Shown: positions 2,967 through 63,110, numbered from the stretch's first letter. The stretch: 64,000 nucleotides of DNA from Bacteroidales bacterium (GCA_025454795.1 JALONT010000009.1:8827-72826), one strand, 5' to 3'. Numbers and translations: made by a program. The notes: generated by a model not told the origin, from the sequence alone.

Positions 2967-3002
2967 GTCGTCGCACCGTCGCACCGTCGCACCGTCGCAC
3001 CG
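2967..3002. repeat. Tandem octamer array (TCGCACCG x4, preceded by a partial unit)
   Basis: Read directly: gtcg tcgcaccg tcgcaccg tcgcaccg tcgcaccg. It fills the spacer up to the stop codon of the PP2C gene (3003). Confidence 0.9.
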
Positions 3003-5555
3003 TTATACCCTTATACCTATAACCATCACATCGTCCACCTGCTCGCGGTCTCCCTTCCATTTCTCAAATGTGTTATCCAGAATCTCTTTCTGAAGCTCCA
3101 TTGGTTTAGCATGATTCCTGAGAAGAAGTTCCTGGAACGGCTTGTACATGTATTTCTTCCCCTTAGGACCTCCAAACTGATCAGCGAATCCGTCAGAGAA
3201 GATATAGAGGTAATCCCCTTTTTTAATCTCAATATTCTGGTTAGTAAAGGGAGAGAATGAAGTAAAATGAATACCTATCGGCATCCTGTCAGCCTGGTAT
3301 TTGATCAAATTACCGTCCCTGATGATGTAGAGAGGATTATTTGCGCCGGCATAATCAAGCTTCCCTGTTCTGAGGTCGAGAATTATCAAAGAGATGTCCA
3401 TCCCGTCGCGTGCCTCACCTGTAGTCCCTTTCTGTTTCAGTGTATTTATTATTTCGTCTCTCAGAAAATTGAGGATTGTTGCCGCATCAGCTATCTCCCT
3501 TGTATTTATTATCTCATCAAGGAAAGCATGTCCGAGCATGCTCATAAATGCTCCCGGAACACCATGCCCTGTGCAATCACCTGCGGCAACGATAATCTTA
3601 TTATTTCTTCTTACACCCCAGTAGAAGTCTCCACTTACAATATCTTTGGGCCTGTATAGAATGAAGTTCTCCAGTCCCCATTCAGTAAGGAATCCGACTG
3701 GAGGAAGGACAGCGGTTTGTATCCTGCTGGCATACTGGATACTGTCAGTTATGGACTGGTTCTTCTGTTCAATAATATCTTTCTGTTTAAGGACTTCAGC
3801 ATTTGTAACTTCAAGGTCGGCATTAATTTTTTCAATATGCTTCTTGCTTTCAGCCAGCTTCAGATTTTTTTTCCTTGTTGAGATAAGACCTGAAAGGATC
3901 ATTATTGCAACAATTACCATCAGAACAACAAGTCCAACAGCCATTTTCCGGATCTGTTTCTCCTTCTCAGCTTTCAGGATCTGCTGTTTTTTCTCTGTTT
4001 CGAGGAGTTTATTTGCATTCTGAAGAGCTTTTTCCTGCTCTGTTTTCAGATCAAGTTCAAGTTTCTGCCTCTGTCTTTCCTGTTCAAGAGATTTTACTTT
4101 CTGTTCGCTCTCCCTTGCAAAGTATTTTTCCTGTTCAAGTGCGAGTGATTGTGCAAGCCTGTCTTTTTCTGACCTTTCCAGGGCTCTTTCCTTTATAACA
4201 AGTTTAAGCTCGTTTTCCCTTCGTGATGATTCCGCTTTGAGGGTTTTCAATTCCAGTCCCTGAATCTCCTCAGTTGCAAGCTCACTTCTCAATCTCTGCT
4301 CAAGTGATTCAAATTCAGCTACTTTTTCGGTAGAAGCATTTTCAGCAAGGCGGTTTTCATAGTTCAGTGAATCGCGAAGGCTAAGATGTTTTTCATAATA
4401 CTCAAGTGCTTTAATGAAGTCATTACCGTTTTCGAGGACATTTGAGTAATCTTTATAACATAGCTGAAGCACTTCGAAATTTCCTGAAGCTTTTGCCGAT
4501 TCGATGCAGTTCAGGCAGTACATTTCGGCATGATAATTATCTCCCTTCCTGAAATATATCATTGCAAGGATTCGTTCAATACGGGCTACCTCATCAGTTC
4601 TGCCAGATTCCCTGGCATGATCCAGAGCCTCCTCAAACGATCTCATCATCTCCTGCTGGTTCCCCAGATTCTGATAACAGATCGCAATATTTGCCCAGGC
4701 ATCGGTAAGAAATGAATCATCTTTACCGCCTGCTTCAGAAGATTCCACCGCTTTTTTAAAATCAGCCAGCGCTGCATTCAGATCATTCCTGCGAAACATG
4801 AGCAAACCTGTCTGGTTATATGTTGCAGCTATGTTTTTATAATCTCTTTTGCCGGAATAAAATATGAGTGCTTTATTAAATTTATCGTATGCCTGATCGA
4901 ACAATGCTTGCCTTGTAAACAGTTTGCCTGATTGGTTTGTGCACCTGATCATGCCAGTTGTATCTCCGTTCTTTTCAAAATACCATCCTGCTACATTGTA
5001 CCATTTGGTTGCAAGGGAATCAACCGGGATATAGTAATATGACCTTCCCGCCATCTCTGCAGCAGATGCCAGTAATCCGGGATTTTGATTGTTGTAAAGA
5101 AGGAACTCCTGCTCGGAATATTGAGCAGATTTTTTATAGACTCCAGCTTCAAAATATTTATTTGAAATACTATGCAGGATTTTCGCTTCATTTTCCTTGT
5201 CACCGAGTTTGGTGTAGACCGAAGCAGCCCTAAGATAATTGCGCAATGTCTCTTCCCAGTCGGAACGGCTGTCATTGAGAGAGGCGAGAAGTTCATATCC
5301 TGAAGCTTCAATTTCCAAAAAACTGCCTGCTGAAGCTGATTCCACAGTTCTTATTATATAAGCAATGGAGCTGTCTGGCTGATCATTAATCAAAAATTTC
5401 TGAGCTGTTATTAACAGCTCAACTGTATATAATGAATCGGCTGTCCTTTTTCGTAACAATTCAGTTCTGACCGAAAGAGTATCCTGTCCAATAGTGATAT
5501 AAATCAACGATGAAAAGACCAGCAATAATATTATGACTGAAGTCTTTCTTTTCAT
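3003..5555 (-). CDS. Membrane-anchored TPR / coiled-coil sensor with C-terminal PP2C (SpoIIE-type) serine phosphatase domain
   Basis: 850 aa. It has an N-terminal signal/anchor, a long TPR-like region, a Glu/Lys-rich coiled coil, a TM helix (MAVGLVVLMVIVAIMILSGLIS), then a PP2C/SpoIIE domain (SGDFYW, AAGDCTGHGVPGAFMSM, DGMD, FSDGFADQ). Confidence 0.8.
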   Translation of the reverse strand: MKRKTSVIILLLVFSSLIYITIGQDTLSVRTELLRKRTADSLYTVELLITAQKFLINDQPDSSIAYIIRTVESASAGSFLEIEASGYELLASLNDSRSDWEETLRNYLRAASVYTKLGDKENEAKILHSISNKYFEAGVYKKSAQYSEQEFLLYNNQNPGLLASAAEMAGRSYYYIPVDSLATKWYNVAGWYFEKNGDTTGMIRCTNQSGKLFTRQALFDQAYDKFNKALIFYSGKRDYKNIAATYNQTGLLMFRRNDLNAALADFKKAVESSEAGGKDDSFLTDAWANIAICYQNLGNQQEMMRSFEEALDHARESGRTDEVARIERILAMIYFRKGDNYHAEMYCLNCIESAKASGNFEVLQLCYKDYSNVLENGNDFIKALEYYEKHLSLRDSLNYENRLAENASTEKVAEFESLEQRLRSELATEEIQGLELKTLKAESSRRENELKLVIKERALERSEKDRLAQSLALEQEKYFARESEQKVKSLEQERQRQKLELDLKTEQEKALQNANKLLETEKKQQILKAEKEKQIRKMAVGLVVLMVIVAIMILSGLISTRKKNLKLAESKKHIEKINADLEVTNAEVLKQKDIIEQKNQSITDSIQYASRIQTAVLPPVGFLTEWGLENFILYRPKDIVSGDFYWGVRRNNKIIVAAGDCTGHGVPGAFMSMLGHAFLDEIINTREIADAATILNFLRDEIINTLKQKGTTGEARDGMDISLIILDLRTGKLDYAGANNPLYIIRDGNLIKYQADRMPIGIHFTSFSPFTNQNIEIKKGDYLYIFSDGFADQFGGPKGKKYMYKPFQELLLRNHAKPMELQKEILDNTFEKWKGDREQVDDVMVIGIRV

Positions 5556-9106: not shown

Positions 9107-9150
9107 GGCGTCAGGCGTCAGCGTCAGGCGTCAGGCGTCTGGCGTCTGGC
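9107..9150. repeat. Tandem heptamer array (GGCGTCA/GGCGTCT, about 6 units)
   Basis: Read directly. It is followed at 9166..9196 by a 7-periodic GCCC-rich partner (gcccttc gcccgtc gcccata gcc). It lies between convergent genes. Confidence 0.9.
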
Positions 9151-9200
9151 AGACAACTATCAGTTGCCCTTCGCCCGTCGCCCATAGCCGCTCGCCTTCA

Positions 9201-12025: not shown

Positions 12026-12098
12026 CGCAAAGATCGCAAAGACATGAATTATAAATTTTCAACTTTGCGTACTTTGCGCCTTCTTAGCATGCTTTGCG
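12026..12098. repeat. Inverted word cluster: CGCAAAG x2 facing CTTTGCG x3
   Basis: CGCAAAG at 12026 and 12035; CTTTGCG at 12063, 12072 and 12092. It can fold as a ~16-bp interrupted hairpin directly downstream of the last gene of the hydrogenase operon, so it may act as its terminator. Confidence 0.8.
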
Positions 12099-12144
12099 GT
12101 TAAATTGACTTCTTTTATAGTCCTTAATGCAACGCAGAAATGCA

Positions 12145-12561
12145 TTATAGATATTTCCTGTCCTCCTCCGGGACTTCGAAATACTTATCGTATATCTTGA
12201 CATCGGGGCCTGTCTTTCCCTCTACCTTATCACCCCTGATCTTATAGGTGCATTTCTCTCCGGCAATACCTGAAAAATAAATATTAAACTCTTTCTTGTC
12301 ATCATCAACCATTATGATCCTTACAAGGTGTTTATACTTTGCACTGTTTAACTGTGAGTGACAGATAGGACAGGTATAAGTATACTCTTCCCCTTCTTCG
12401 ATCCTGAATGAAGGATGCGTGGTGGTCACGTAATTGCCAATCTCGGGATTCAGGAAAATCAATCCTCTTTCGGAACCGTTTACTTTTGAAGCAGCAAGGA
12501 CAATAGAGGTTTTTACGTTAAGAAGTCCCCTGCAAACTTTACATAAATATTCAGTAGCCAT
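12145..12561 (-). CDS. Zinc-ribbon-like protein of unknown function, last gene of the hydrogenase operon
   Basis: 138 aa with two CxxC knuckles (CKVC at residues 7-10, CPIC at 74-77). Its start overlaps the stop of the maturation protease gene by 11 nt. I recognise no family. Confidence 0.6.
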   Translation of the reverse strand: MATEYLCKVCRGLLNVKTSIVLAASKVNGSERGLIFLNPEIGNYVTTTHPSFRIEEGEEYTYTCPICHSQLNSAKYKHLVRIIMVDDDKKEFNIYFSGIAGEKCTYKIRGDKVEGKTGPDVKIYDKYFEVPEEDRKYL

Positions 12562-13018
12562 GATGTACCTCCTGTTTATTTATTTGTTTAATAATATGTT
12601 CAGCAACATTCTTTACAAGATACGAAATATTTTCACCAAAGTCAATTTTTTCTGGCTGGATTCCCATTATAAAAACGGGCATATCGAAAAACTCAGATAA
12701 ACGTCTGACGGAAATATTGTGGGTATTGAATGTCAGATCCTCTATCTCGCAAATATCCAATAATTTAAATGTACCCGGGGGCGAATTCATTTCAAGACAA
12801 TCAATGAGAATAAGTAAATCGGGATTCAGGCAGTTTATTTTTCCTATATAGTTTTCAATACTGGTTTCTGCATTAAGAGCTGATATGTTTCCTCTGGTTA
12901 TTATTCTACTGCTTATATAAACACCAACACCATCATCCATTTTAAGGAGATTGCCTATTCCGACAAAAAGTATTTTTTCCCCTTTTCGTTCAAGCAGTCT
13001 ATGCAGGTCATCAAACAC
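12551..13018 (-). CDS. hycI: [NiFe] hydrogenase maturation endopeptidase (HycI-type)
   Basis: 155 aa. GIGNLLKMDDGVG motif plus the downstream Asp (LILIDC) and His (NTHNIS) positions typical of HycI/HybD proteases. Confidence 0.85.
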   Translation of the reverse strand: MFDDLHRLLERKGEKILFVGIGNLLKMDDGVGVYISSRIITRGNISALNAETSIENYIGKINCLNPDLLILIDCLEMNSPPGTFKLLDICEIEDLTFNTHNISVRRLSEFFDMPVFIMGIQPEKIDFGENISYLVKNVAEHIIKQINKQEVHHGY

Positions 13019-13631
13019 CTTTGTATAAGTATTTTACAAGAATCATTCTCAGGCAATTAGGACAAATGATATTGAACATATCCTTTCTTTTCAGATGGTC
13101 CTTTATTTCTACACCGATATCCTGCCCGTCTGCCAGCTTAAGTTTCTGGTTAAGTATGTTGAGATTCAGAATTGAAGAAAATGCTTTTGTACCAAGCTTC
13201 CTGTGCATGTAATGCAAATGCTCTTTTGTAGTAATCACTGCACCACAACTTTCACAAATCAGCAGCTCTTTTTCCTGATATTCAATACTTTTTGACTTAT
13301 CAAATACTGCCAGGTCGTATATCTTATCTGATAGTTTTACTCCCTTCCTGGTAATACAATGTTCCTGACACTGACCACAGAAGATACATTTCCCGTAATC
13401 TCTTTTAATTATCCTGATACCTTTTTCTTTGTCATCTGTAAAAGTTATTGCCTGGGGAGGACAAACATTTGCACATGTCTCGCATCCCACACAGTTCTCG
13501 TTATCAACGACAGGTTTGCCTCTGAAATTTTCAAAGGGGATGTGAGGCTCCTGTGGAAATTTTGATGTATAGGCCGGTGTAACCAGCGAAATAATTGCCT
13601 CTCTTAATTCACGTATCTTTGGATACTTCAT
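13011..13631 (-). CDS. 2x[4Fe-4S] ferredoxin-like subunit (NuoI/MbhN/HycF-like) with a Cys-containing C-terminal extension
   Basis: Cluster motifs CVGCETCANVCP and CIFCGQCQEHC. An extra ~80 aa carries CESCG...CPNC. Confidence 0.8.
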   Translation of the reverse strand: MKYPKIRELREAIISLVTPAYTSKFPQEPHIPFENFRGKPVVDNENCVGCETCANVCPPQAITFTDDKEKGIRIIKRDYGKCIFCGQCQEHCITRKGVKLSDKIYDLAVFDKSKSIEYQEKELLICESCGAVITTKEHLHYMHRKLGTKAFSSILNLNILNQKLKLADGQDIGVEIKDHLKRKDMFNIICPNCLRMILVKYLYKGV

Positions 13632-13945
13632 TTCACAGAATCTTTATAATCGTCCTTTACGGTTCTTTTGTCAAGTTTTGCACCGAAGTGATATGCACCG
13701 TGAATGAGTGCATGAGCTGCTACGGTTGAACTGAAAAAGATTATCGGTATGGCAAGCAGCGATTTAAAAAACGCATCACCTATTCCAAAATGAAAAGCAG
13801 CTCCAAGCAATATGCTGCAACACCCCAGTGTTACACATTTTGTAGCTGACTGGAGCCTGTTATAAACATCAGGGAGACGGATCAGTCCTATACATCCGAA
13901 AATGTTGAATAAGACACCTATACATATTAATATAACAGCTATCAT
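13628..13945 (-). CDS. mrpG: Mrp antiporter subunit G-like (MbhC-like)
   Basis: 105 aa, 3 TM helices, GLIRLPDVYNRLQSATKCVTLG motif. Confidence 0.8.
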   Translation of the reverse strand: MIAVILICIGVLFNIFGCIGLIRLPDVYNRLQSATKCVTLGCCSILLGAAFHFGIGDAFFKSLLAIPIIFFSSTVAAHALIHGAYHFGAKLDKRTVKDDYKDSVK

Positions 13946-13946
13946 A

Positions 13947-14213
13947 TTACTCGTTTAGTTTTTTGCCAGTGAGGTATTTTGCCAATGTAAGTGTTCCAAT
14001 AAAACTCAGAATGATCCAGGCGATGCCGATATCAAGAATAAAAGATCTTTCTGTCAGGATGGCTATTATAGCACATATACCCACGACAAGAATACCAAAG
14101 ATATCAATACCGACCATCCGGTCAGGGATAGTGGGGCCGCGAATGATCCTGTACAAACAGACACCGCTCAACCCTATCTGAATGTAAAGCAATATGTTGA
14201 GTAATTCAGTCAT
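13947..14213 (-). CDS. mrpF: Mrp antiporter subunit F-like (MbhB-like)
   Basis: 88 aa, RIIRGPTIPDRMVGIDI motif. Confidence 0.8.
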   Translation of the reverse strand: MTELLNILLYIQIGLSGVCLYRIIRGPTIPDRMVGIDIFGILVVGICAIIAILTERSFILDIGIAWIILSFIGTLTLAKYLTGKKLNE

Positions 14214-14698
14214 TCGATTATATTTTTAATGTACTTTTCAAATTTCCCGGTAATCATTCTTGTATATACATCAGGATTATCTGATCTTACATAAATCCAG
14301 TGCACAAAGAGATTATCGCCGATTATATCCACTGTGATGGTACCCGGAGTCATCGTTATTGAATTTGCAAGAAGAGTCCTCGCCAGTTCTGAATTAAGCG
14401 TTGTTTTTACTTTTACTATTCCCGGTTTAATCGGCATTGCAGGATGAAGCACCCTGTAGGCAACATCAAAGTTTGCCTTTATGCATTCCCATATAAAAAC
14501 GACGAGGTACACCAGTAACCAGAAATAGCGCTGTGGTTGTAAAAGTTTATAAACATTCGTTATAAAAAATCTTCCAAAGAACAAAGCACAGATTCCTGAA
14601 GCAACAGTCCCTACAATAATATTGGGAAGAGTCAGCTTAAATGTCAGAAGAAGCCAGAATACCAGTGATAATATAAACAGTGTAATATATTTCATCAT
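14210..14698 (-). CDS. mrpE: Mrp antiporter subunit E-like (MbhA-like)
   Basis: ANSITMTPGTITVD motif. The likely start is the internal MMKYITLF rather than the ORF-track start at 14728. Confidence 0.75.
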   Translation of the reverse strand: MMKYITLFILSLVFWLLLTFKLTLPNIIVGTVASGICALFFGRFFITNVYKLLQPQRYFWLLVYLVVFIWECIKANFDVAYRVLHPAMPIKPGIVKVKTTLNSELARTLLANSITMTPGTITVDIIGDNLFVHWIYVRSDNPDVYTRMITGKFEKYIKNIIE

Positions 14699-14790
14699 AA
14701 AACAATTTATTCTAAAGGTATGATGCAACCTCCATGTGGTTGATTACTATTTTATTATGTTTTAATATGTAAATACATGGAGGTTTCATC

Positions 14791-16326
14791 CTATTGTCCG
14801 ATTATTGTTGATGAGTATTTTAACGGGTCAGTAAGAATATTTATAGCCGGAGTCAGTATTGTTTCCCTGATTTCCGGTATAATCAGCAGGCTGAGCATCA
14901 GACATATAATACTCAGAATGACCATGCTGAAAACCATCGGGAATGGAACTTCTTTTATCTTATCCCTTTTAATATCTGATTTATTATAGAATGCATACCG
15001 CTGGAATTTAAGGAATGAAGCAAGGGTAATTATGCTGACAATTACTGCAAGAACTGCCAGCAGATAAAACCTTGCCATTACAGCAGCAATTATGATGACC
15101 AGTTTACTGAAAAATCCGTTAAATGGAGGTATACCTGATATAGACATTGATGCAACAAATGAAGTGGCTGATGTAGCAGGCATATCTTTGGCCAATCCGC
15201 CCATCTCCTTAAGATCACGGGTGCCAATAGTATATTCTATTGCTCCGGCATTCAGAAACAGTAATCCCTTAAAAGCAGCATGGTTAATTAGATGGAAAAT
15301 TCCCCCGGTAATTGCAAGAGCCGCAACTTCAGGTTTGATGCCCCTGGAGACAAGTATCATTCCAATACCTACAGAAAGAACTACATACCCCATCTGGCTT
15401 ATACTGTGATATGCAAGAAGCCTTTTAATATCCCATTGACCAATAGCCAGGAAGACACCTATAACCATCGATAATGTTCCGAGTGTAGTTATCAGGATTG
15501 ACATGCTTTCACTAATAATGAACATATTAAAGAACAGCCTGATAATTACATATATACCGACAGCTTTTATCAGCACCCCCGAAAGCATTGCTGAAATAGG
15601 GGAGGGTGCTGATGAATGCGCATCAGGCAGCCATGCATGGAAAGGAATTATGGCTGCCTTAAGTCCAAAGCCGCTTAAAATAACTATCTGGACAAAAAGA
15701 TAATATGTTTTGTCATAGCCATTGCTGAAAGCTGTTTTAATGTCGGCAATATTCAGTGTTTTGGCTTTCCAGTAAATTAATCCGATCCCAATCAGGATTA
15801 AAAACGATGCAAGAGCTCCCAAAACCTGGTATTTGAATGAAGCTTCCAGTTCATTCTTCTCAACTCCAAAAGCTACAAGAGCATAAGATGATATGACAGA
15901 TATTTCGAGGAAAACGAAGATATTGAAAAGGTCACCGCTGATTACCACACCATTCATTCCGGCAATCATCAGGCAGAATAGAGCGTAGAAATAGTTTTCG
16001 GCAGTATATCTTTTTATGTAAGATATTGAATAGAAGGCAGATAAGAATCCGATAAGATTTATTATACAGACGATAATTGCAGTGAATCCATCCATAACCA
16101 TATAAATGCCGATCGGAACTTTGTTTACCGGCTCCCATCCGCCTACTTTATAAACATAAATGTTTTCCCCGGTTGTGAAAAGGAAATAGAAGCTGATACA
16201 AGCAAGGAACAGAAGTATAAGGGATGTGAAGTACTTGTTAAAATCACTGACGAACCTCCCGATGATCATTATCAGAAAAGCCCCGGCCAGCGGTGTTATA
16301 ACAAAAAATGGTAACAATGGATTCAT
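14791..16326 (-). CDS. mrpD: Antiporter-like subunit, MrpD/NuoM-N family (second proton/sodium-translocating subunit)
   Basis: 511 aa and polytopic. Motifs FHAWLPDAHSSAP, AYHSISQMGY, HLINHAAFKGLLFL. Confidence 0.85.
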   Translation of the reverse strand: MNPLLPFFVITPLAGAFLIMIIGRFVSDFNKYFTSLILLFLACISFYFLFTTGENIYVYKVGGWEPVNKVPIGIYMVMDGFTAIIVCIINLIGFLSAFYSISYIKRYTAENYFYALFCLMIAGMNGVVISGDLFNIFVFLEISVISSYALVAFGVEKNELEASFKYQVLGALASFLILIGIGLIYWKAKTLNIADIKTAFSNGYDKTYYLFVQIVILSGFGLKAAIIPFHAWLPDAHSSAPSPISAMLSGVLIKAVGIYVIIRLFFNMFIISESMSILITTLGTLSMVIGVFLAIGQWDIKRLLAYHSISQMGYVVLSVGIGMILVSRGIKPEVAALAITGGIFHLINHAAFKGLLFLNAGAIEYTIGTRDLKEMGGLAKDMPATSATSFVASMSISGIPPFNGFFSKLVIIIAAVMARFYLLAVLAVIVSIITLASFLKFQRYAFYNKSDIKRDKIKEVPFPMVFSMVILSIICLMLSLLIIPEIRETILTPAINILTDPLKYSSTIIGQ

Positions 16327-16329
16327 CTG

Positions 16330-16668
16330 CTATCCTCTTAAGTTTTTAATCTCTCTGATATCGAAAGTTCCGTATTTCCTGTATAGTCTGATAATTATTG
16401 TCATCAGCATAGCAGTTGTTGCCAGCCCGATAACAATAGCTGTCAGCACCATAGCCTGGGGCAAAGGATCTACATATGTTTTTACCGGATCAGCCGGATC
16501 AACTATTGGTGCAACTCCTCCGTCTACATATCCAATTAGCGCGAAAAGCAGAAAGATGCTGATTTCCATTATGGAAAGTGAAACGGCTATTTTAACAAGG
16601 TTCCTTCTTGTAATTACTCCATACAATCCCACGAGAAATAATATGAAACACATTATGTATGCTATCAT
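16330..16668 (-). CDS. mrpC: Mrp antiporter subunit C-like (NuoK/MbhG-like)
   Basis: 112 aa, 3 TM helices, NuoK-like pattern. It overlaps the upstream gene by 4 nt. Confidence 0.8.
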   Translation of the reverse strand: MIAYIMCFILFLVGLYGVITRRNLVKIAVSLSIMEISIFLLFALIGYVDGGVAPIVDPADPVKTYVDPLPQAMVLTAIVIGLATTAMLMTIIIRLYRKYGTFDIREIKNLRG

Positions 16669-17102
16669 TGCGGCGACTCCTCCTTAAAAATTATGAGTGA
16701 AAGAAATATTATAAAAATTGATGCAGCGACTTCAGTACCGACAAAAATATTATAGAGTGGTAAAACGCCGGCACTGATGAGTTGCCCGACAACACCTTTG
16801 GGAAGGAAATTACTAAAAAAGATATGGATCCCGAACAAAAAACCTGCAGTGGCAATCATAATTACCATGAGGATAGAAATGCTTTCAACTATTGTTGTCC
16901 CTGCTTCTTCCTTTACAAGTTTCAGAAAATCGCCGCCATAAGCGAGGGTAACCAGGATAAGCGATCCAGCGATAATGACTCCTCCTGCGAAGCCTCCTCC
17001 GGGAGTAAGATGGCCATGTACTATGATATAAATTCCGTACATGAAAATCATCCCCGCAATAAGCTGAGTTGTCTTTTTCACTATTAACGTCATCCCTTTC
17101 AT
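16665..17102 (-). CDS. mrpB: Mrp antiporter subunit B-like (MbhF-like)
   Basis: 145 aa, HGHLTPGGGFAGG motif. Confidence 0.8.
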   Translation of the reverse strand: MKGMTLIVKKTTQLIAGMIFMYGIYIIVHGHLTPGGGFAGGVIIAGSLILVTLAYGGDFLKLVKEEAGTTIVESISILMVIMIATAGFLFGIHIFFSNFLPKGVVGQLISAGVLPLYNIFVGTEVAASIFIIFLSLIIFKEESPQ

Positions 17103-17110
17103 TTTTCTTT

Positions 17111-17180
17111 TGTCTTTGGTCTTTGGTCTTTGGTCTTTGGTCTTTGGTCTTTGGTCTTTGGTCTTTGGTCTTTGGTCTTT
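17111..17180. repeat. Tandem heptamer array inside the hydrogenase operon (GGTCTTT x10 on plus = AAAGACC x10 on the coding strand)
   Basis: Read directly: tgtcttt followed by 9 perfect ggtcttt units. It occupies almost the whole 78-nt spacer between the stop at 17181 and the next start at 17102. Confidence 0.95.
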
Positions 17181-17708
17181 CTATTTCTTCCCTTTCAATC
17201 TTAAAATAGTCAGCACACCCAGCACTGCGGTAACCAGCACAACTGCTTCTCCCATAGTATCATATCCCCTGAAATCAAAAACAACACCGGTGACAAGATT
17301 CGCACTTCCTGTTTTATATGCAGCACCTTCAATATATGGTCCTGCCATTCTTAAAGTACTTTTCCCGAGAACATCAAGCTGTTGGATCGATGCAATAAAG
17401 AACCAGAGGAAAATAAATATCAAAATAATTCCGGTTGCGGCAGAGACATATCCCATTGTGTCAGGTTTTGAGTATTTCTCCTCCCTGGAACTGTCAAGGA
17501 CCACGGCGACCATTATTATCAGGGTAATTGTATCCACAACTATCTGGACAATAGCAAGATCAGGTGCTTTAAGCAACAGGAAGCATATTACGAGGCTGTA
17601 TCCCACAATGCCACAGGCGATTACTGAAGAGAGCAGATCTTTTGCATGAATTGCATACAAAGCTCCTAAAATCATTAATCCTGTTATTACAGATATTGCC
17701 AGTTCCAT
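17181..17708 (-). CDS. MrpA C-terminal-like membrane subunit (DUF4040 / MbhD+MbhE-like)
   Basis: 175 aa. Contains [22 protein letters not shown], the MbhE/MnhB-N type motif. Confidence 0.75.
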
Positions 17709-17722
17709 TTAGCTTATATTAA

Positions 17723-19582: not shown

Positions 19583-19591
19583 ATCTTATCT

Positions 19592-20785: not shown

Positions 20786-20793
20786 TCTTAAGC

Positions 20794-21231
20794 TTATTTA
20801 AAATCTTTTCTGTAAGGATAAACACCCTCTGCCCAGTTGCCTTCAGAAATCAGTTTTTCCTGATTGGGATGATTTAAAAAATTTATTCCGAAAAGCTCAT
20901 GCATCTCCCTCTCTATCCAGTTTGAGGCATTGAACATGTTGGAAAGAGATTCGATCTCAGGATTATCCTTATCCAGAATCAAATGAATATTAAGGATCAA
21001 CCCGGATTCATCTTTACTGAAATGATAATGAATCTCAAATCCTCGTTTTGTATGTACCGCTGAAGCAATTATAAACCTGAAACCGGCTCTCTTATAGAGA
21101 TATTCTGAAACCTTCAATATAGACTCAGGTTTGATAGTGATTATAACCCGCTTCTCATTCCTGATCGATTCCCCAAGAATGTCACTCTTGAAATTTGACC
21201 TGAAATCTTCTATAATTGTTTTTGTATCCAT
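20794..21231 (-). CDS. NuoC/MbhK-like hydrogenase subunit
   Basis: 145 aa, WIEREMHELFGINFLNHP motif of the 30-kDa subunit family. Confidence 0.85.
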   Translation of the reverse strand: MDTKTIIEDFRSNFKSDILGESIRNEKRVIITIKPESILKVSEYLYKRAGFRFIIASAVHTKRGFEIHYHFSKDESGLILNIHLILDKDNPEIESLSNMFNASNWIEREMHELFGINFLNHPNQEKLISEGNWAEGVYPYRKDFK

Positions 21232-21243
21232 CTATCAGTTTTC

Positions 21244-21299
21244 AACTCTAAACTCTAAACTATCTTCAACCCACCTCTACGCCACTGCGCCACTGCGCC
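21244..21299. repeat. Two mini-arrays inside the hydrogenase operon (AACTCTA x2.7; CGCCACTG x2.5)
   Basis: Read directly. They fill the 70-nt spacer between the small-subunit stop (21302) and the NuoC-like start (21231). Confidence 0.85.
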
Positions 21300-21301
21300 T
21301 C

Positions 21302-21715: not shown

Positions 21716-21726
21716 GACTCTAATAT

Positions 21727-22659: not shown

Positions 22660-22670
22660 CTTTTTGTTAT

Positions 22671-23168: not shown

Positions 23169-23213
23169 TACTATATTATTATGCTGTATTTCAACCAGTG
23201 CATTACATTCATT

Positions 23214-23669: not shown

Positions 23670-23720
23670 GATCTTTATTATTAAGTAAAAAAATGAAATA
23701 ATTTTCTGATTTCTTGTTCA

Positions 23721-25562: not shown

Positions 25563-25725
25563 ATAAAATTAAAATCTGAAAGCATAAATGACAATAAAAA
25601 AAGTTATTTTTTAAATGCTTAAAACAATTATCTTTGTAATATGCAATAAATCAGATAAATAGATAATTATTTTTATTTAAAGAATATTTTTTAACTTGCA
25701 TTCTGATAATTTATAATATGAATTG

Positions 25726-32554: not shown

Positions 32555-32662
32555 TTACTCGTTGCTGGGTACTGGGTGCTGGGTTGTCAATGATAAAACG
32601 AGCAACGAGCAACGAGCAACGAGCAACGAGCAACGAGCAACGAGCAACGAGCAACAAGTAAC
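32555..32662. repeat. Composite heptamer element: TGGGTRC x3, spacer, AACGAGC x8 (+1 degenerate), flanked by inverted GTTACTCGTTGC / GCAACAAGTAAC
   Basis: Read directly. The perfect AACGAGC units run 32597..32652. Confidence 0.95.
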
Positions 32663-36357: not shown

Positions 36358-36450
36358 GCCTTTGCGCCGTTGTTCCGTTGTGCCTTTTTGCCTTTGCGCC
36401 GCAAAGACTCTTCATAGCGTTTTGCCGTTATGCCTTTGTGCCTCTGTACC
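36358..36450. repeat. Cluster of GCCTTTGCGCC / CGCAAAG words
   Basis: GCCTTTGCGCC occurs at 36358 and 36390, and the palindrome CTTTGCG-C-CGCAAAG at 36392..36406. GCCTTTG variants follow and run into the 3' end of the flavoprotein gene. Confidence 0.7.
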
Positions 36451-37020
36451 GCTAAGCCTCTTCATCACCCACGCCATATTCTCCCCCAGAGTTTGCATAG
36501 TTTTCATACCTTCATCATCCTTAAGTACATCGCCCTTCTCCCTGCCGATCCCGATATTCCAGTAAGATGATCCGGGAATGATCATTTCATTTATCAGAAA
36601 GAAGTGGTTTATACTGTCAAATGCATGCATGGCTCCTGCACGCCTGACAGATATTACTGCAGCTCCCGGTTTACGCTTCAGAGGATTCCCGGCACCCCGG
36701 AGAGCGTAACCGGCAACATCGATCAGGGCTTTTGCTTCGGTCGATAGATCTGAAAAATAGGTTGGCGATCCTATAATAATTGCATCAGCTTTAAGCATCT
36801 TGCTGATACACTTATTAATGACTTCATTTTTCTGGTGACATTTACCGTCTTTTGCTTTCCGGCACTTCAGGCAGGCAATACAACCATTTACTTTTTTGCC
36901 TCCCAGCTGGAAAAACTCTGTCTTTATTCCGCTCTCTTCCAGAGATTTAAAGACTTCTTTTATAAGAAGTTCGGTGTTGCCTCCCTTCCTGGGACTGCAG
37001 TTTATTCCAAGTACTTTCAT
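36412..37020 (-). CDS. Flavodoxin-fold NADPH-dependent FMN reductase / iron-sulfur flavoprotein-like protein
   Basis: MKVLGINCSPRKGGNTELL N-terminus and a compact Cys cluster CIACLKC...C. The 3' end overlaps the repeat region, so the exact stop is less certain. Confidence 0.75.
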   Translation of the reverse strand: MKVLGINCSPRKGGNTELLIKEVFKSLEESGIKTEFFQLGGKKVNGCIACLKCRKAKDGKCHQKNEVINKCISKMLKADAIIIGSPTYFSDLSTEAKALIDVAGYALRGAGNPLKRKPGAAVISVRRAGAMHAFDSINHFFLINEMIIPGSSYWNIGIGREKGDVLKDDEGMKTMQTLGENMAWVMKRLSGTEAQRHNGKTL

Positions 37021-38171: not shown

Positions 38172-38218
38172 AGTTACTATAACTAACATGTTTAACCACG
38201 GAGCTGTAAACTGTGAAA

Positions 38219-38302
38219 CATGATATTCAGTGGAACCACTGTTTAACTCCGTGTGACCCCCATGATATTCAGTGGAACCACTGTTTAACTCCGTGTGACC
38301 CC
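38219..38302. repeat. Perfect 42-bp tandem duplication
   Basis: CATGATATTCAGTGGAACCACTGTTTAACTCCGTGTGACCCC occurs twice back to back (38219..38260, 38261..38302). It is flanked by inverted AACCACGG (38194..38201) / CCGTGGTT (38301..38308). Confidence 0.95.
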
Positions 38303-38378
38303 GTGGTTTAAAATTATCTTAAATAAAAAAAAGCAAAAGACCAAGCCTTTTGCTTTTGAACAGGCCTGAAGATAATGA

Positions 38379-41004: not shown

Positions 41005-42828
41005 ATGATGGACAAGATCAGGCTGCTGCTCAAATATATTCTGCCTTACAAATGGTCAGCAATAAAAAATATCTTCTATAATATACTGAGCGCTCTTTTT
41101 GCTCTTTTTTCATATACACTTGTCATACCTTTCCTTAATATCCTGTTTAACAGAGTTGCGATTGCAGTTTCACCTGGTGAATTCAGATTCACAATGGATT
41201 ATTTTAATGAGTTTGCCAGGTATTATTTATCTCTTTTTATTGATAAGAACGGTCCCGAAGGTGCACTTCTTCTGGTGAGCCTTGTATTTATTGTTGCCAG
41301 CATACTAAAAAACCTCTTCATTTTTCTTGCAAATAACAGTATGGCCTATATCAGAGCATCAACCGTTCGTGACCTGAGAAAAAAAATGTTTTTTAAGGTG
41401 CTCAGACTTCCCCTTTCATTCTTCACTGATGCAAGAAAAGGAGATCTGATGACAAGGATATCAAATGATGTTCAGGAGATAGAAATATCCGTAATGTCGT
41501 CATTGACAATGCTTTTCAGGGATCCGATTTATATAATGATATTTGTTGTATACCTGTTCATAACAAGTTACCAGCTTACATTGTTTGCCCTTATTCTATT
41601 ACCAATAAGCGGATGGCTCATTGGCCGAGCCAGCAAGACCCTTCGCTCATCTTCTCTCCTTGGACAACAAAACCTGGGAAGACTTCTTTCAATAGTGGAG
41701 GAAACACTGTCAGGGCTAAGGATCATTAAAGGCTTTAATGCTGAGAAAAAGATGAAGGCGCAATTTGGTACCTCTAATGATATGTATTCCAAAATTTTTA
41801 AAAGAGTAATCCGTAAATCATATCTTGCATCTCCGCTCAGCGAAGTTCTTGCCTCTATTGTTGTTATTGTTCTGATGTATATCGGAGGATTACTGGCACT
41901 GCAAGGTGATGGCCATATGACTTCTGATAAACTTATAGCCTTCGTTCTTGTTTTTTCCCAGATAATTCAACCTGCAAAAAACATAACAACTTCCTGGTTC
42001 AGCATTCAGAAAGGTATGGCATCAATTGACAGGATCGATCAGATACTGGAAGCTGAGGAAAAAATCACTGAGAAGGAAAACGCACTGCCGGTTAAAGAGT
42101 TTTCTGATTCAATAGAATTTAAAGGCGTCTGGTATGCATACAACAGTGAACCTGTCCTGAAAGATATAAACCTTAAAATTAAAAAGGGACAGACGGTAGC
42201 CATTGTAGGCAAATCAGGTGCAGGCAAGTCAACCCTTGCCGACCTTCTTCCCAGGTTCATTGATCCCGACAAAGGGAGTATCCTCATAGATGGAACTGAT
42301 GTGCGGGACCTGAAATTATCTGACCTCAGGTATCTGATGGGAATCGTAAGTCAGCATCCCATTCTTTTCAATACGACCTTCACTGAAAATATCGCATTTG
42401 GTGTTGATGTGCCTGAAGCTAAATATGTTGAAAATGCAGCCAGGATTGCAAATGCTCACGAATTTATAATGGAAACCGAGCAAGGATATGAAAATAGTGT
42501 CGGGGAATCAGGAAATAAACTCAGCGGCGGTCAGCGGCAACGGATAAGCATCGCCAGGGCGATAATGGCAAATCCTCCTATCCTGATCCTCGACGAGGCA
42601 ACATCTGCCCTGGATACCGAGTCGGAGCGGCTTGTTCAGGATGCAATAGTGAAGCTTATGCAGAACAGAACATCAATTGTCATTGCTCACCGACTTTCCA
42701 CAATACAGAACGCGGATATAATAGTGGTACTTGACGAAGGCATGATTGTTGAGACTGGAACACATACTGAACTGATGAATAAAAAAGACGGATTCTATGC
42801 AAAGCTCCATAGCTTCCAGGCGATTTGA
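41005..42828 (+). CDS. ABC transporter, fused permease/ATPase (MsbA-like lipid exporter family)
   Basis: 607 aa. Six-TM exporter domain, then Walker A GKSGAGKST, signature LSGGQRQR and Walker B ILILDEATS. Confidence 0.85.
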   Translation: MMDKIRLLLKYILPYKWSAIKNIFYNILSALFALFSYTLVIPFLNILFNRVAIAVSPGEFRFTMDYFNEFARYYLSLFIDKNGPEGALLLVSLVFIVASILKNLFIFLANNSMAYIRASTVRDLRKKMFFKVLRLPLSFFTDARKGDLMTRISNDVQEIEISVMSSLTMLFRDPIYIMIFVVYLFITSYQLTLFALILLPISGWLIGRASKTLRSSSLLGQQNLGRLLSIVEETLSGLRIIKGFNAEKKMKAQFGTSNDMYSKIFKRVIRKSYLASPLSEVLASIVVIVLMYIGGLLALQGDGHMTSDKLIAFVLVFSQIIQPAKNITTSWFSIQKGMASIDRIDQILEAEEKITEKENALPVKEFSDSIEFKGVWYAYNSEPVLKDINLKIKKGQTVAIVGKSGAGKSTLADLLPRFIDPDKGSILIDGTDVRDLKLSDLRYLMGIVSQHPILFNTTFTENIAFGVDVPEAKYVENAARIANAHEFIMETEQGYENSVGESGNKLSGGQRQRISIARAIMANPPILILDEATSALDTESERLVQDAIVKLMQNRTSIVIAHRLSTIQNADIIVVLDEGMIVETGTHTELMNKKDGFYAKLHSFQAI

Positions 42829-42830
42829 AA

Positions 42831-42926
42831 AGGTTGAAGAAGTTGAAGAGAGTTGAAGGGAGTTGAAGAAGAATAGAACTTGAGAGTGGGAGAATGGGAG
42901 AGCGGGAGAGCGGGAGAGCGGGAGAA
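42831..42926. repeat. Two adjacent arrays: 10-bp GTTGAAGRRR x4 and 8-bp GAGAGCGG-type x5.5
   Basis: Read directly (42831..42870 and 42881..42926). An ACTCCGTG/CGTGT word cluster follows at 42955..42985. Confidence 0.9.
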
Positions 42927-43009
42927 CTTAATATGAAATATGAACTACTCCGTGAAACTTCGTGTAACCCCGTGTTTATATTTTTAAATAAATATCAAAT
43001 AATTTACAG

Positions 43010-53499: not shown

Positions 53500-53520
53500 A
53501 ATTAAGTAGTTATATTAATT

Positions 53521-53643
53521 GTTGCTTGTTACTTGTTACTTGTTACTTGTTACTTGTTGCTAGGTGCTAGGTGCTAGTTCCATGTTGCTTGGTACCAGGT
53601 GCTATTACTGAATTTTAATACCAGTACCCAGTACCCAGCACCC
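53521..53643. repeat. Composite heptamer element: 12 consecutive GKTRCTW heptads (GTTACTT x4, GGTGCTA x3 ...), spacer, CCAGTAC/CCAGCAC x3
   Basis: Read directly. Heptads run 53521..53604 and 53621..53643. The element ends at the stop codon of the upstream gene. Confidence 0.95.
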
Positions 53644-55928: not shown

Positions 55929-56009
55929 TCAGGGCTCAGGCATCGGGCTTAGGGTTTCAGGATTAAAAGTTTGATAGTTGTCTGACACCTGACGCCGGTC
56001 GCCTGACAC
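55929..56009. repeat. Inverted heptamer arrays: TCAGGNN-type x5 (55929..55963) facing CTGACRC-type x4 (55982..56009)
   Basis: Read directly. TCAGG and CCTGA cores are complementary. The element ends at the stop codon of the HAD gene. Confidence 0.85.
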
Positions 56010-56894
56010 CTAAGACTTCCATTCCGGATGTTCAGGAAGGTAAGTTTTAAACTCTTTCACAAGTGCCTCCTCATAAGCACCCTTAAAAGTACTGCTATAG
56101 AACCTGTCGAGTCCCTCATTAAAAAGTCTTTCCCATGAATCTTCCTCCTTACCCGGGTTTACGGGGAAGAAGAGAAATCCGTTTGATTTGGCAGCTTTCA
56201 GGTCTCCGTTAGCATCTCCTATCATAAGTACTTTATCATCAGGATATTTACCTTTGGCACCATATTTAAGATGCTCGCTTTTTGTACCAAGCTCCTGACC
56301 TGCAATCATCCTCACATAATGATCTATTTTATTCTCTTCCCATTCGCGTTTCAGTGCTTCCATGGGAGTCTGGGATACGACCATTATATCAGTCATAGTT
56401 ATCATTTTATCAAGACACTCCTTCACAAATGGAAAAGGAGTGATACCGAACACCATTTTTTCAATGTCTTCATTAACCTTCAGAGACCACTCAAGTGTTT
56501 GCGCAATAAAAGGATCATTGACTTCAGCTGCGTATTTCTTCAGTGTTGGATTGCCCAGTTTTGTCTCCTTTTTTGTCCATTCAATCAGAGAGGCTGGCGA
56601 TGGGACGGTAAAGTTCCTTGCCTTCATCTCGGGACGCATTGAGAGAAGTCTCAGTGTCTCAATTACTGCCAGGAACCGGTTACTTCCCCTGGTCATGGAA
56701 TATAGATTAACAAACTCCCAGGTTTCCCGTGCGTATTTTGAAACAGGCTGCATCTTATAGTACTTAATGAAGTTTGGGCAGAAGCACTCCTTCTGCTTGA
56801 TCTCCATTGTGTCGAACGCACATCCGTCAGAATCGATCCCTATGAAAAATTCTTTCGCAGGTTTGATGCTTAACAATAGTTCCTGAGGATTCAT
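56010..56894 (-). CDS. HAD-superfamily hydrolase (phosphatase-like)
   Basis: 294 aa. Motif I IGIDSDGCAFDT and motif IV MIGDANGDLKAA. Confidence 0.7.
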   Translation of the reverse strand: MNPQELLLSIKPAKEFFIGIDSDGCAFDTMEIKQKECFCPNFIKYYKMQPVSKYARETWEFVNLYSMTRGSNRFLAVIETLRLLSMRPEMKARNFTVPSPASLIEWTKKETKLGNPTLKKYAAEVNDPFIAQTLEWSLKVNEDIEKMVFGITPFPFVKECLDKMITMTDIMVVSQTPMEALKREWEENKIDHYVRMIAGQELGTKSEHLKYGAKGKYPDDKVLMIGDANGDLKAAKSNGFLFFPVNPGKEEDSWERLFNEGLDRFYSSTFKGAYEEALVKEFKTYLPEHPEWKS

Positions 56895-56960: not shown

Positions 56961-57065
56961 CTGCCCTGTGCCCTGCACCCTGTGCCCTGCGCCCTGTGCC
57001 CTGTGCCCTGTGCCCTGTGCCCTGCGCCCTGCGCCCTGCGCCCTGCGCCCTGCGCCCTGCGCCTT
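56961..57065. repeat. Tandem heptamer array, 15 units of GYGCCCT (= AGGGCRC on the coding strand)
   Basis: Read directly. It lies between the SDR stop (57068) and the HAD start (56894). Confidence 0.95.
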
Positions 57066-57067
57066 TC

Positions 57068-57904
57068 TTATACCCCGCTATATGCACTGAATCCACCATC
57101 AACCGGAATTACAATTCCTGTAACTGCTTTCGAAAGATCAGAAATCAGGTATAATACTGTACCGGTGAGATCTTCAGGAACACAGTATCTTTCCATTGGG
57201 GTTCCGTTTATTATCTTCTTCCCGCGGGCTGTAGGCTCACCGGTTTTTTCATCAGTAAGAAGGAATCTGTTCTGATTTGTAATCAGAAATCCGGGTGCTA
57301 TCGCATTAACTCTTACCCCCACTTTGGCGAAATGAACAGCAAGCCATTGTGTAAAATTATTAACTGCTGCTTTTGCAGCGGAATAGGCAACGACCTTTGT
57401 AAGCGGCCTGAATGAATTCATTGAGGAAACATTTAAAACTACCCCTGATTTCTTCTTAACCATGTCAGCACCAAACACCATTGTTGGAAGCAGTGTGCCT
57501 TTGAAATTAAGGTCGAATACCTTATCGAAGGCGTCGGCCTGAAGGCCAAAGAATGAATCTTCAGGTTTCTCAGTACCATCCATTTTCTCAACTTTTGTTG
57601 TTGCAGCAGGTGAATTCCCGCCAGCCCCATTAATCAGGATATCTATATCTCCAAACTTGTTATTTATCTCGTTCTTTGCTTTCTCAAGAGAAGATTTATC
57701 CAGTACACTTGCAGATACACCAATTGAGGGAGTTTTAAACTCCTTTTCAATTGCACCGGCTACAGCAGTAGCGGCATCTTTGTTGAGATCGAGAATAACT
57801 GTTTTGACACCTTGTGCTGCTAGGGATTTTGCCATTTCAGAGCAGATTACACCAGCCCCGCCGGTAATCACAGCAACCTTGTTTTTTAAATTTAATTCGT
57901 TCAT
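57068..57904 (-). CDS. Short-chain dehydrogenase/reductase, probable fructuronate/mannonate oxidoreductase
   Basis: TGGAGVICSEMA cofactor motif and the YSAAK catalytic motif. The substrate is inferred only from the adjacency to uxaC. Confidence 0.6.
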   Translation of the reverse strand: MNELNLKNKVAVITGGAGVICSEMAKSLAAQGVKTVILDLNKDAATAVAGAIEKEFKTPSIGVSASVLDKSSLEKAKNEINNKFGDIDILINGAGGNSPAATTKVEKMDGTEKPEDSFFGLQADAFDKVFDLNFKGTLLPTMVFGADMVKKKSGVVLNVSSMNSFRPLTKVVAYSAAKAAVNNFTQWLAVHFAKVGVRVNAIAPGFLITNQNRFLLTDEKTGEPTARGKKIINGTPMERYCVPEDLTGTVLYLISDLSKAVTGIVIPVDGGFSAYSGV

Positions 57905-60405: not shown

Positions 60406-60504
60406 CTCTGTGGTTCTCTGTGGCCCTCAGTGACACTCCGTGTAAGTTCTTAAATTATTTAATTTCACAGGGTTACACGGAGAAGACACAGAGAAGACAC
60501 AGAG
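60406..60504. repeat. Nested inverted repeats / intercistronic hairpin between kduI and kduD
   Basis: There is a perfect 10-bp stem CTCCGTGTAA (60436..60445) / TTACACGGAG (60473..60482). It is flanked by CTCTGTG x2 (60406, 60416) facing CACAGAG x2 (60487, 60498). Confidence 0.85.
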
Positions 60505-62964: not shown

Positions 62965-62984
62965 AATGGATAAGTTTTAACGGA

Positions 62985-63110
62985 AACAAATATAGTAATA
63001 ATGGCACAATCCACCTTCGCTAAAGCTGCGGTGGACGAAGGGCGCAACGGGGCAGGAGAAAAGCGGCGCAATGGAGCAACGGTGCAATGGCAAAGTGGCA
63101 CTATGTTCCA
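62985..63110. repeat. GC-rich 8-periodic word cluster (GCAACGG/GCAATGG/GCAAAGTGG) with local hairpins
   Basis: Read directly: ...ggcgcaacgg ggcaggag...gcggcgcaatgg agcaacgg tgcaatgg caaagtgg cac. Its reverse complement contains TTGCGCC-type words shared with the arrays at 12.07, 21.29 and 36.4 kb. Confidence 0.7.

Follow-up and report, generated by a model that had tools for sequence, protein, structure and literature searches.

The spacers between genes in a 64-kb stretch of DNA from a Bacteroidales bacterium (GCA_025454795.1, JALONT010000009.1:8827-72826; the whole of this stretch is referred to below as the window) contain tandem arrays of short units, most often heptamers, which are probably long simple sequence repeats (SSRs) of the heptameric kind, i.e., products of mutation whose distribution is set by a filter and not by a dedicated function. 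All of the features of such repeats are seen here: the units stand in tandem far more often than chance would have it, the modal period is 7 nt, the arrays keep to non-coding DNA and are depleted between divergent genes, they lie close to stop codons with the G-rich strand as the sense strand, and their unit number varies.

Tandem Repeats Finder (TRF) arrays scoring at least 50 served as the main counting threshold, with 100 dinucleotide-preserving shuffles of the window as the chance control. The lineage set comprised the window and 80 related genome loci (21-kb loci, labeled with L-numbers such as L003, amounting to 1.45 Mb of relatives), for a total of 1.51 Mb, and all that is said below about RNA has been read off DNA.

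Arrays in the window

The arrays are real and far above chance: 12 of them reach the threshold in the window versus a mean of 0.26 (maximum 2) in the shuffles, there are 8 TRF rows of period 7 where 1.17 would be expected, and everything scoring at least 50 falls either within the approximately 8% of the window that is non-coding or at the edges of doubtful open reading frames (ORFs) extended by the array itself. This bears out the central claim of an earlier reading made without database searches (the sequence-only reading), which had placed short-unit tandem arrays in the spacers between genes, and several of its lesser claims fared equally well: its lists of words recurring between loci were confirmed, the words being concentrated in spacers; sequence inspection agrees that arrays adjoin the stop codons at 3003, 17181, 53643, 56010 and 57068; repeat-derived spurious ORFs were found; and the arrays are not CRISPR, the units being 7-11 nt long and contiguous, without spacers. 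Its list of 14 sites stood for the most part, as TRF rows are present at 11 of them, the strongest being 56963-57063 (score 153) and 17106-17180 (score 143), with other strong rows at 32597-32655 (7 nt x8.4), 9107-9150 (7 nt x6.4), 2969-3003 (8 nt x4.4) and 42825-42925 (10-nt and 8-nt units), and additional ones at 21244 and 21280, 32556, 36368, 38219, 42825 (10 nt) and 42882 (8 nt), 53515 and 53621 (7 nt), and 60475 (11 nt). The remaining three sites gave no TRF row, and while 12026 is a real inverted word cluster and 55929 a degenerate run, 62985 is weak. The contention that spacers are systematically filled turned out to be overstated, since around 14 of the 33 spacers of at least 25 nt bear arrays and none of the 5 divergent ones do.

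Could such arrays be an assembly artefact or a chance low-complexity feature? Short-read contigs do break within long arrays (at the ends of L083 and L059), but two independent assemblies (NCBI and JGI), 100% and 99.95% identical to the window, share the same array at 17106, and arrays also occur in megabase-scale contigs and in one complete chromosome among the relatives. Together with the shuffles, these observations refute the explanation and leave it a negligible probability. An exact-flank pattern scan of metagenome contigs found no copy variants of the 17106 array, and it has an equal number of units in the two near-identical assemblies, which an exact protein look-up had retrieved, so that the window's own strain showed no polymorphism.

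Position and orientation across the lineage

Across the window and the related loci, 183 arrays were counted, only about 5 of which are inside genes, though 90% of the DNA is coding; 16 of the 80 related loci have none. Among the arrays of these loci, 75 have a period of 7 nt, 23 of 8 nt and 44 of 14 or 21 nt, periods of 6, 9 and 10 nt being rare (3 each), so that the earlier statement that most arrays have a 7-nt period holds in the sense that 7 nt is modal in the lineage, but strictly 7-nt units are present at only about 7 of the 14 window sites. Array density per kb is 1.59 in tandem (co-directional) spacers, 1.03 in convergent and 0.30 in divergent ones, which makes arrays approximately five times rarer in the last.

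Within co-directional spacers, an array starts at a median of 7 nt past the upstream stop codon (within 10 nt in 54% of cases, some arrays even overlapping the stop) and its end is separated from the next start by a median of 70 nt, only 8% of arrays ending within 10 nt of a start. This stop-codon anchoring is not mere filling of the free space, because 44% of the short arrays found in long spacers start within the first tenth of the space available and 2% within the last. As a separate matter, the final 15-22 nt of the preceding ORF are part of an array in the window (36412-37020) and in L069, L010, L033, L045 and L025, where the repeat encodes the C-terminal tail and a one-unit indel would alter it.

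Orientation follows a rule as well. The purine fraction of the sense strand is 0.66 in stop-proximal arrays, whereas spacers without arrays have 0.53 over their first 50 nt and coding DNA has 0.54. As orthologous spacers are phylogenetically non-independent, they were collapsed for this test to 37 upstream-gene groups, each family being counted once, and the purine fraction exceeds 0.5 in 33 of them; the bias is present whichever strand of the loci is considered (21 of 22 groups on one, 12 of 15 on the other), which means that orientation tracks transcription instead of being tied to one DNA strand. Read on the sense strand, 24 of 76 stop-proximal units contain GGG and 2 of 76 contain CCC, G minus C amounts to +0.20 in stop-proximal arrays, and unpaired arrays consist of A 0.32, G 0.34, T 0.16 and C 0.17, with 17 of 94 arrays being pyrimidine-rich.

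A composition of this kind is what might be expected of insulators against Rho, by which C-poor, purine-rich or base-paired RNA after the stop codon would deny Rho its loading site and allow operons with long gaps to escape polarity; that the arrays lie within multi-subunit operons and that their orientation tracks transcription on both strands would fit. The proposal is, however, purely inferred, the family downstream of kduI opens with a pyrimidine-rich arm, and the pyrimidine-rich arrays are not preferentially paired with a complementary arm (2 of 17 versus 10 of 73), which counts as a failed prediction. Relatives whose genes overlap at ATGA, furthermore, fare well with no spacer between them, so the array would be solving a problem of its own making, and protection from Rho seems quite improbable.

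Unit vocabulary and predicted RNA structure

Units are drawn from a limited, recurring vocabulary: identical unit pairs between non-orthologous spacers number 15 versus 2.1 expected, and pairs within one mismatch 71 versus 28. The recurring families are AGGCGTS, GGGTGCW, AAAGAYM, AACRAGC, the 8-nt GGCGCAAN/ACGGTGCG and the 10-11-nt CTCTGTG/CACAGAG. The last of these forms an element, CTCTGTG...TAAGTTCTT...CACAGAG, whose 17 copies in the 1.5 Mb are confined to spacers and lie at several sites that are not orthologous, in either orientation and with a conserved loop; it is predicted to fold into 7-10-bp helices with 2-4-nt internal loops between them, at -22 to -49 kcal/mol. That some arrays might fold into periodically interrupted hairpins, as the sequence-only reading had supposed, is thus supported by the predicted folds of this family.

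Its broader claim that many loci pair an array with an inverted partner survives only locally, 6 of the 14 window array spacers folding better than their shuffles while a clear complementary arm accompanies only 14 of 94 lineage arrays. A general hairpin role finds no support, array-bearing and array-free spacers being equally structured (-0.193 versus -0.189 kcal/mol per nt, p 0.65), and several of the largest arrays appear unfoldable (the minimum free energy, MFE, of 17106 is 0, and the 2944 and 42826 spacers have positive z-scores). As a class, then, the arrays add no RNA structure according to the folding predictions, and only a minority would form interrupted hairpins.

These data bear directly on the possibility that the arrays are selected cis-elements of the REP/BIME type acting in RNA, i.e., that hairpins or G-quadruplexes within about 15 nt of the stop codon block 3' exonucleases or slow termination of the upstream cistron, thereby tuning relative levels within operons. 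REP and BIME elements of enterobacteria are imperfect palindromes dispersed in transcribed extragenic or intercistronic DNA near stop codons, and, in E. coli, a REP lying no more than 15 nt from a stop codon reportedly lowers upstream translation, a finding attributed to Liang, Rudd and Deutscher in 2015. The distance to the stop codon in over half of the co-directional spacers, the window spacers that outfold their shuffles, the stable folds of the CTCTGTG family, GGG on the sense strand in one third of the stop-proximal units, and the retention of arrays at the same junction in about 30 relatives despite a changed downstream gene all speak for such a role. They have to be set against the lack of additional structure in array spacers, the unfoldable large arrays, the scarcity of complementary arms and the two thirds of units without G-runs. 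Analogous repeats, moreover, were found to be without regulatory effect (Rehm 2015, PMC4692102), and selection for such elements is on balance unlikely. The palindromic, dispersed and extragenic character of REP/BIME elements belongs to the CTCTGTG/CACAGAG family, the majority of the arrays being direct repeats without a partner.

Turnover among relatives

Unit number changes in whole steps. L104 and L107, which are 99.4% identical, differ by a 20-nt indel that is exactly two 10-nt units; between L010 and L023, at 94% identity, the counts are 18.6 versus 12.3 and 16.7 versus 10.6 units, variant units being scattered through the arrays; and L041 and L042 have 4 and 10 GAATGGGA units, respectively. 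Such differences come with conserved flanks, and whole-unit differences between conserved flanks are a signature of replication slippage, by which the arrays arise and resize, with concerted evolution of their units. The slipped-strand length variation that the sequence-only reading had listed among the possibilities is accordingly the one that L104/L107 and L010/L023 favor.

The junctions themselves seem to persist while their contents are exchanged. After the short-chain dehydrogenase/reductase (SDR) gene (window stop at 57068), approximately 30 relatives have arrays running from the stop codon, even where the downstream gene differs, with units that are akin to those of the window (GCAGGGC, GCAGGGT, GGGTGCA) or unrelated to them (GAATGGGA, GACAAGA, GGCAGAA, AAGAACAA x20). 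At the mrp/mbh junction (the 17106 site), compared in 79 metagenomic relatives, stop and start overlap as ATGA in 7 and the spacer is only a few bases long in several more; L138 has (AAAGACA)x3 within the window's flanks, as compared with (AAAGACC)x10.7 in the window; other relatives have GGGTGCA, GAGGTGT, GGGCACA or GAATTAC arrays, and further ones GC-rich REP-like hairpins, all of them between stop and start. The kduI-kduD gap is about 10-15 nt in some relatives and holds arrays or hairpins in others. The REP-like element in question, approximately 85 nt long and GC-rich (..ACCCCC..CCTTCCCCCAGGGGGGAAGG..TTTCCCCCCTGGGGGAAA..GAAAGGGGGT), sits at stop-proximal junctions of many relatives and is absent from the window; this CCCCC/GGGGG element lies just after the MbhD/E stop in L084, L089, L109, L113, L125, L131, L137 and L155, and is also present in L003, L004, L006, L030, L055, L015, L010 and L062.

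Filled and empty states of one junction among relatives are also what one would see if the arrays, or at least the hairpin families, were small non-autonomous mobile elements (REP-like, or similar to miniature inverted-repeat transposable elements, MITEs) that insert beside stop codons and then expand internally. The CTCTGTG element, with its conserved loop and its dispersal in both orientations, would suit this, as would the unrelated CCCCC/GGGGG element at the same junctions, and a MITE with an internal minisatellite has been described from a member of the Bacteroidales, P. gingivalis (PMC4596501). Simple arrays, however, showed neither target-site duplications nor terminal inverted repeats around them, no transposase or RAYT turned up among the 30 window proteins (mainly array-flanking) scanned against Pfam, arrays at one junction share their flanks and differ only in unit number, and simple arrays such as (AAAGACC)n appear to have been seeded from a local A-rich leader. 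Mobility is a possibility worth keeping in mind, if a somewhat unlikely one.

Variation in unit number among close relatives, together with the few arrays that start 15-22 nt before a stop codon, where a 7-nt indel would change the C-terminal tail, might also bring phase variation to mind, i.e., contingency loci in which a change in unit number switches the expression of a neighbor. That the arrays follow stop codons and are not in promoters or 5' coding regions, that the neighboring genes are housekeeping ones, and that near-identical strains share the copy number make this extremely unlikely.

Operon context and terminators

Arrays are found between subunit genes of the minus-strand Mrp/Mbh/complex-I-like operon at 12145-25542 (MnhB, MbhD/E, Oxidored_q2, NuoB-like, NuoC-like and others), namely at 17106 and 21244/21280, and there is also an intra-operon array between kduI and kduD. 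The genes beside arrays are housekeeping ones (transketolase, 6-phosphogluconate dehydrogenase, mrp/complex-I-like subunits, uronate catabolism). A hairpin with a T-run was found in none of the 121 array-bearing tandem spacers by a scan that finds only 8 in 534 tandem spacers overall, which shows only that the arrays are without U-tracts and is no evidence on whether they replace terminators. The terminator or attenuator role entertained by the sequence-only reading is not supported, and the arrays are probably not transcription terminators, because they lie inside operons and have no U-tracts.

Canonical intrinsic terminators, each a GC-rich hairpin with a T-run, are present in the window at 36257-36300 (after the Fe-hydrogenase gene) and 38322-38355 (in the convergent spacer after dinB), so the lineage has ordinary terminators beside its arrays.

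A probable explanation: mutational products behind a filter

The explanation favored here would run as follows. Slippage generates and resizes the arrays, the preference for 7 nt probably being a general slippage property of replication, as has been proposed for other phyla. The arrays would be transcribed as 3'-untranslated or intercistronic RNA and read through, as their intra-operon location, the lack of U-tracts and the presence of terminators elsewhere suggest. Insertions and expansions would then be tolerated where coding sequence, promoters and operon read-through are left undisturbed, and the purine-rich orientation would be kept either because unstructured, C-poor RNA is harmless to operons or because expansion comes more easily to non-template DNA that is G-rich. 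Long interrupted hairpins with REP-like behavior would be formed by the minority paired with complementary arrays.

Several points weigh against this explanation. Both the stop anchoring and the orientation bias are stronger than purely neutral fill predicts, which leaves room for a function at the RNA level; the unit vocabulary recurs between unrelated spacers, for which slippage alone offers no explanation; the pyrimidine-rich arrays do not show the preference for a complementary arm; the genes of the related loci were called with a simple codon-usage caller of our own, which is approximate, so that starts and a few spacer types may be wrong; and transcription, read-through and any effects on expression are deduced from DNA.

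Neutral slippage does not account in full for the anchoring, the purine bias and the recurrence of units, and this is the reason for keeping a further reading under consideration, i.e., a selected, orientation-specific RNA spacer system in which heptads of the limited vocabulary would stand at stop codons, whether as the site of a periodic RNA-binding factor, as a shield against Rho or RNases, or as a means of tuning termination of the upstream cistron. It seems rather improbable. The host phylum initiates translation without Shine-Dalgarno pairing, and, if such a system did exist, genes that were ancestrally overlapping and ATGA-coupled could become uncoupled.

Comparison with known repeat systems

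The REP/BIME elements introduced above are best matched by CTCTGTG/CACAGAG and by the CCCCC/GGGGG elements of the relatives; most of the Bacteroidales arrays differ from them in being direct tandem repeats without a palindrome, and the hairpin families differ in having arms that are periodic themselves (7-bp helices with 2-4-nt internal loops). Among cyanobacterial repeats, the STRR units CCCCAGT, TTGGTCA and CAACAGT of heterocystous species were reportedly described by Mazel et al. in 1990. The arrays resemble STRR (Calothrix, Nostoc, Anabaena) in being tandem heptamers between genes and in having several families of recurring units in each genome. Identity with the cyanobacterial STRR was nevertheless rejected, as STRR1-3 tandems are absent from the 1.51 Mb and the relatives of the window's glucuronate isomerase (UxaC) are Bacteroidales genomes.

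The repeats described by Rehm 2015 (PMC4692102) are the G-rich heptamers GGGAATC of Xanthomonas and GGGGAYT of Nostoc PCC 7120, which are tandem and non-coding, enriched between aligned ORFs and under-represented between divergent ones, no more than 50 bp away from stop codons or overlapping them, with the G-rich strand as the sense strand; occasional inverted pairs make stem-loops possible, lengths vary among relatives beside the same genes, and no function or regulatory effect was found. The same paper cites heptanucleotide tandems of Calothrix. The Bacteroidales arrays share with these repeats the 7-nt tandems, the spacer type, the proximity to stops, the sense G-richness, the inverted pairs and the length turnover, and differ in belonging to another phylum, in having many unit families instead of one, and in including 8-nt and 10-11-nt forms. 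Every unit of the Rehm repeats also has a quadruplex-forming G3-4 tract, whereas only 24 of 76 stop-proximal units have GGG here.

In so far as the survey of Mrazek 2007 is summarized in PMC4679880, it concerns long SSRs with units of 5-11 nt, heptanucleotides being the commonest, for which polymerase slippage was proposed, with a sporadic phylogenetic distribution and with units that are not a multiple of 3 kept out of coding DNA. Going by that summary, the Bacteroidales arrays share the heptamer predominance, slippage, confinement to non-coding DNA and sporadic distribution, while a Bacteroidales lineage does not appear in it as repeat-rich and neither stop anchoring nor a sense purine bias is described there. 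MacGregor 2015 (PMC4679880) reported direct repeats of TAACTGA and other heptamers in Beggiatoaceae, cyanobacteria and five Bacteroidetes (Gramella, Aequorivita, Elizabethkingia, Flexibacter and Paludibacter, one Bacteroidales species being included), with intergenic arrays of relatives differing in 7-nt steps and BOGUAY repeats just upstream of start codons, the TAACTGA unit standing mostly in forward orientation a few nt before the start. Intergenic heptamers in Bacteroidetes, their mixing with other heptamers and the stepwise length differences are common to both, but the TAACTGA/BOGUAY repeats are start-proximal, whereas the arrays studied here mostly begin at the stop.

No tandems of TAACTGA, STRR1-3, GGGAATC or GGGGAYT are present in the 1.51 Mb examined, and Rfam 15 covariance models run over the window gave zero matches at gathering thresholds or at E<=1. 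For these reasons the arrays stand, on sequence grounds, outside the named, sequence-defined families, and the lineage is a new one for elements of this kind. The view of the sequence-only reading that they are not of a described kind has to be given up, as heptameric intergenic arrays have been published already (Rehm 2015, PMC4692102; MacGregor 2015, PMC4679880; Mrazek 2007; Calothrix). What is new here is a richer vocabulary, the 8-nt and 10-11-nt forms, and hairpins whose arms are arrays.

Individual sites and the host lineage

The minus-strand array at 2969..3003, (CGGTGCGA)x4.4 on the sense strand, has an 8-nt unit, a TRF row and no structure (fold z +1.25); it comes directly after the stop (3003-3005) of a SpoIIE/TPR gene and upstream of a methyltransferase gene (2287-2943), the extension of an ORF through it is non-genic, and its 8-nt unit family also occurs in L069 and L074. 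The plus-strand site 9107..9195, in a convergent spacer, combines (GGCGTCA)x6.4 (TRF) with a (CNTCGCC)x4 partner into a predicted interrupted hairpin (-42 kcal/mol, z -3.6). At 12026..12100 on the minus strand, upstream of the transketolase gene, the sequence reads (GGCGCAAAG)x3, a loop and (CTTTGCG)x2 on the sense strand, a putative hairpin of words spaced by 9-10 nt (fold z -2.35).

Both arrays inside the long operon are on the minus strand. That at 17106..17180, (AAAGACC)x10.7 (TRF score 143, MFE 0), takes up the entire 78-nt gap separating the MbhD/E-like gene of the mrp/mbh operon from the MnhB-like one and is identical in L081 and L082, and that at 21244..21299 (TRF; fold z -0.46), at the junction of the NuoB-like and NuoC-like genes assigned by Pfam, consists of (GGCGCAGT)x2.5 directly after the stop followed by (TTTAGAG)x2.6.

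The plus-strand site 32556..32662 has a (GKTRCTG)x4 arm and an (AACGAGC)x8.4 arm (TRF; fold z -2.7) right after the stop (32552-32554) of a gene remnant, and its GTTGCTG/AACAAGC family is also present in L017, L059, L011 and L056. The 836-nt "spacer" upstream of the hydrogenase genes to which that remnant belongs (31973-32554) is made up of two convergent gene remnants, a minus-strand one with an outer-membrane beta-barrel-like C-terminus (...NRLEVKLGFRF*) near 31985 and the plus-strand one (...GLKIYNASDPTKI...SSILVVEEG*), which stops at 32552-32554, just before the 32556 array. On the minus strand, 36358..36465 holds about ten 8-nt units (GGCRCAAM, sense strand; a 50-nt x2 TRF row, z -1.17) that cross the 3' end and the stop of the FMN-reductase gene at 36412-37020, as its translation indicates. 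At 38190..38302 on the plus strand, an exact 42-nt x2 duplication (copies at 38219-38302; TRF; z -2.19) carries CACGGAG/CTCCGTG words; it is not a short-unit array, lies 3' of dinB (Pol IV, impB/mucB/samB family; dinB region 37104-38302), and the perfect identity of its two copies suggests a very recent event.

The plus-strand arrays at 42825..42975, (TTGAAGAGAG)x4.7, (GAGAGCGG)x5.5 and (CCGTGNAAC)x2.6 (TRF; fold z +1.05), begin at the stop of an ABC-transporter gene and are purine-rich and unstructured. At 53515..53643 (minus strand, TRF, lag-7 identity 0.64), (GGGTRCT)x3.3 at the stop of a GFO/IDH/MocA gene is followed on the sense strand by about 12 heptads (CTAGCAC/CAAGYAA), and the orthologous spacer holds arrays in 24 relatives. 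The degenerate minus-strand heptads at 55929..56009 (GGYGTCA ... TGARRCC; lag-7 identity 0.50, z -1.86) begin at the stop of the HAD gene 56010-56894 and form a weak predicted hairpin. The minus-strand array at 56963..57063, (GCAGGGC)x14.4 on the sense strand (TRF score 153, fold z -3.94), comes 4 nt after the stop of the SDR gene, and a quadruplex would be possible there because of the G3N4 spacing.

The hairpin between kduI and kduD (60406..60504, plus strand), CTCTGTG(x4)...TAAGTTCTT loop...CACAGAG(x4) with a 10-11-nt period, belongs to the dispersed palindromic family and is predicted to be interrupted (fold z -4.97). The last site, 62985..63110 (plus strand), is a weak cluster of GGCGCAAY-type words (lag-8 identity 0.38, fold z -0.11) that breaks the orientation rule, as its purine-rich strand is antisense to the genes on either side; it could instead mark an unannotated plus-strand transcript. 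Apart from these sites, the divergent spacer at 25595-25666 has an AT-rich 25-nt x2 repeat and an 8-nt x2.4 repeat, which are of another type than the stop-proximal arrays and may belong to a promoter or operator.

As for the host, the window has a GC content of approximately 40% and carries genes for a TonB-dependent receptor, uxaC, kduI, kduD, a GH35 glycosidase, an Fe-hydrogenase and the long Mrp/Mbh/complex-I-like operon (Pfam); no tRNA or tmRNA genes were found in it. The best relatives of its UxaC, at 70-82% amino-acid identity, are from metagenome-assembled genomes (MAGs) of uncultured Bacteroidales from fens, lake sediments and soils, some of them labeled Rikenellaceae. The gene content fits this placement, the host being an uncultured Bacteroidales lineage and not a cyanobacterium.

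Implications

There are practical consequences for anyone assembling or annotating such genomes. Contigs end inside arrays in L059 (14669-14784, (AACAAGC)x16.6) and in L083 (4009-4042, (GCAGGGC)n; a Logan contig, the 56963 array being 101 nt long), which is why the arrays are a systematic cause of short-read contig breaks in MAGs of this lineage. They also create spurious ORFs and lengthen the ends of real ones (2287-3060, 17110-17649, 56982-57275, 36412-37020), and, for both reasons, annotation pipelines for these MAGs should mask them.

Cyanobacteria provided the first reports of heptameric intergenic repeats decades ago, and in 2015 such repeats were still described as being of unknown function (PMC4692102). 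The lineage described here provides a natural experiment on this subject, as the very same junction is empty, array-filled or filled with a REP-like hairpin across approximately 80 to 160 relatives: are such arrays the residue of slippage, or are they kept for what they do as RNA? With clear rules of position and orientation, and with many relatives that have long assemblies, tests of slippage against RNA function become practical.

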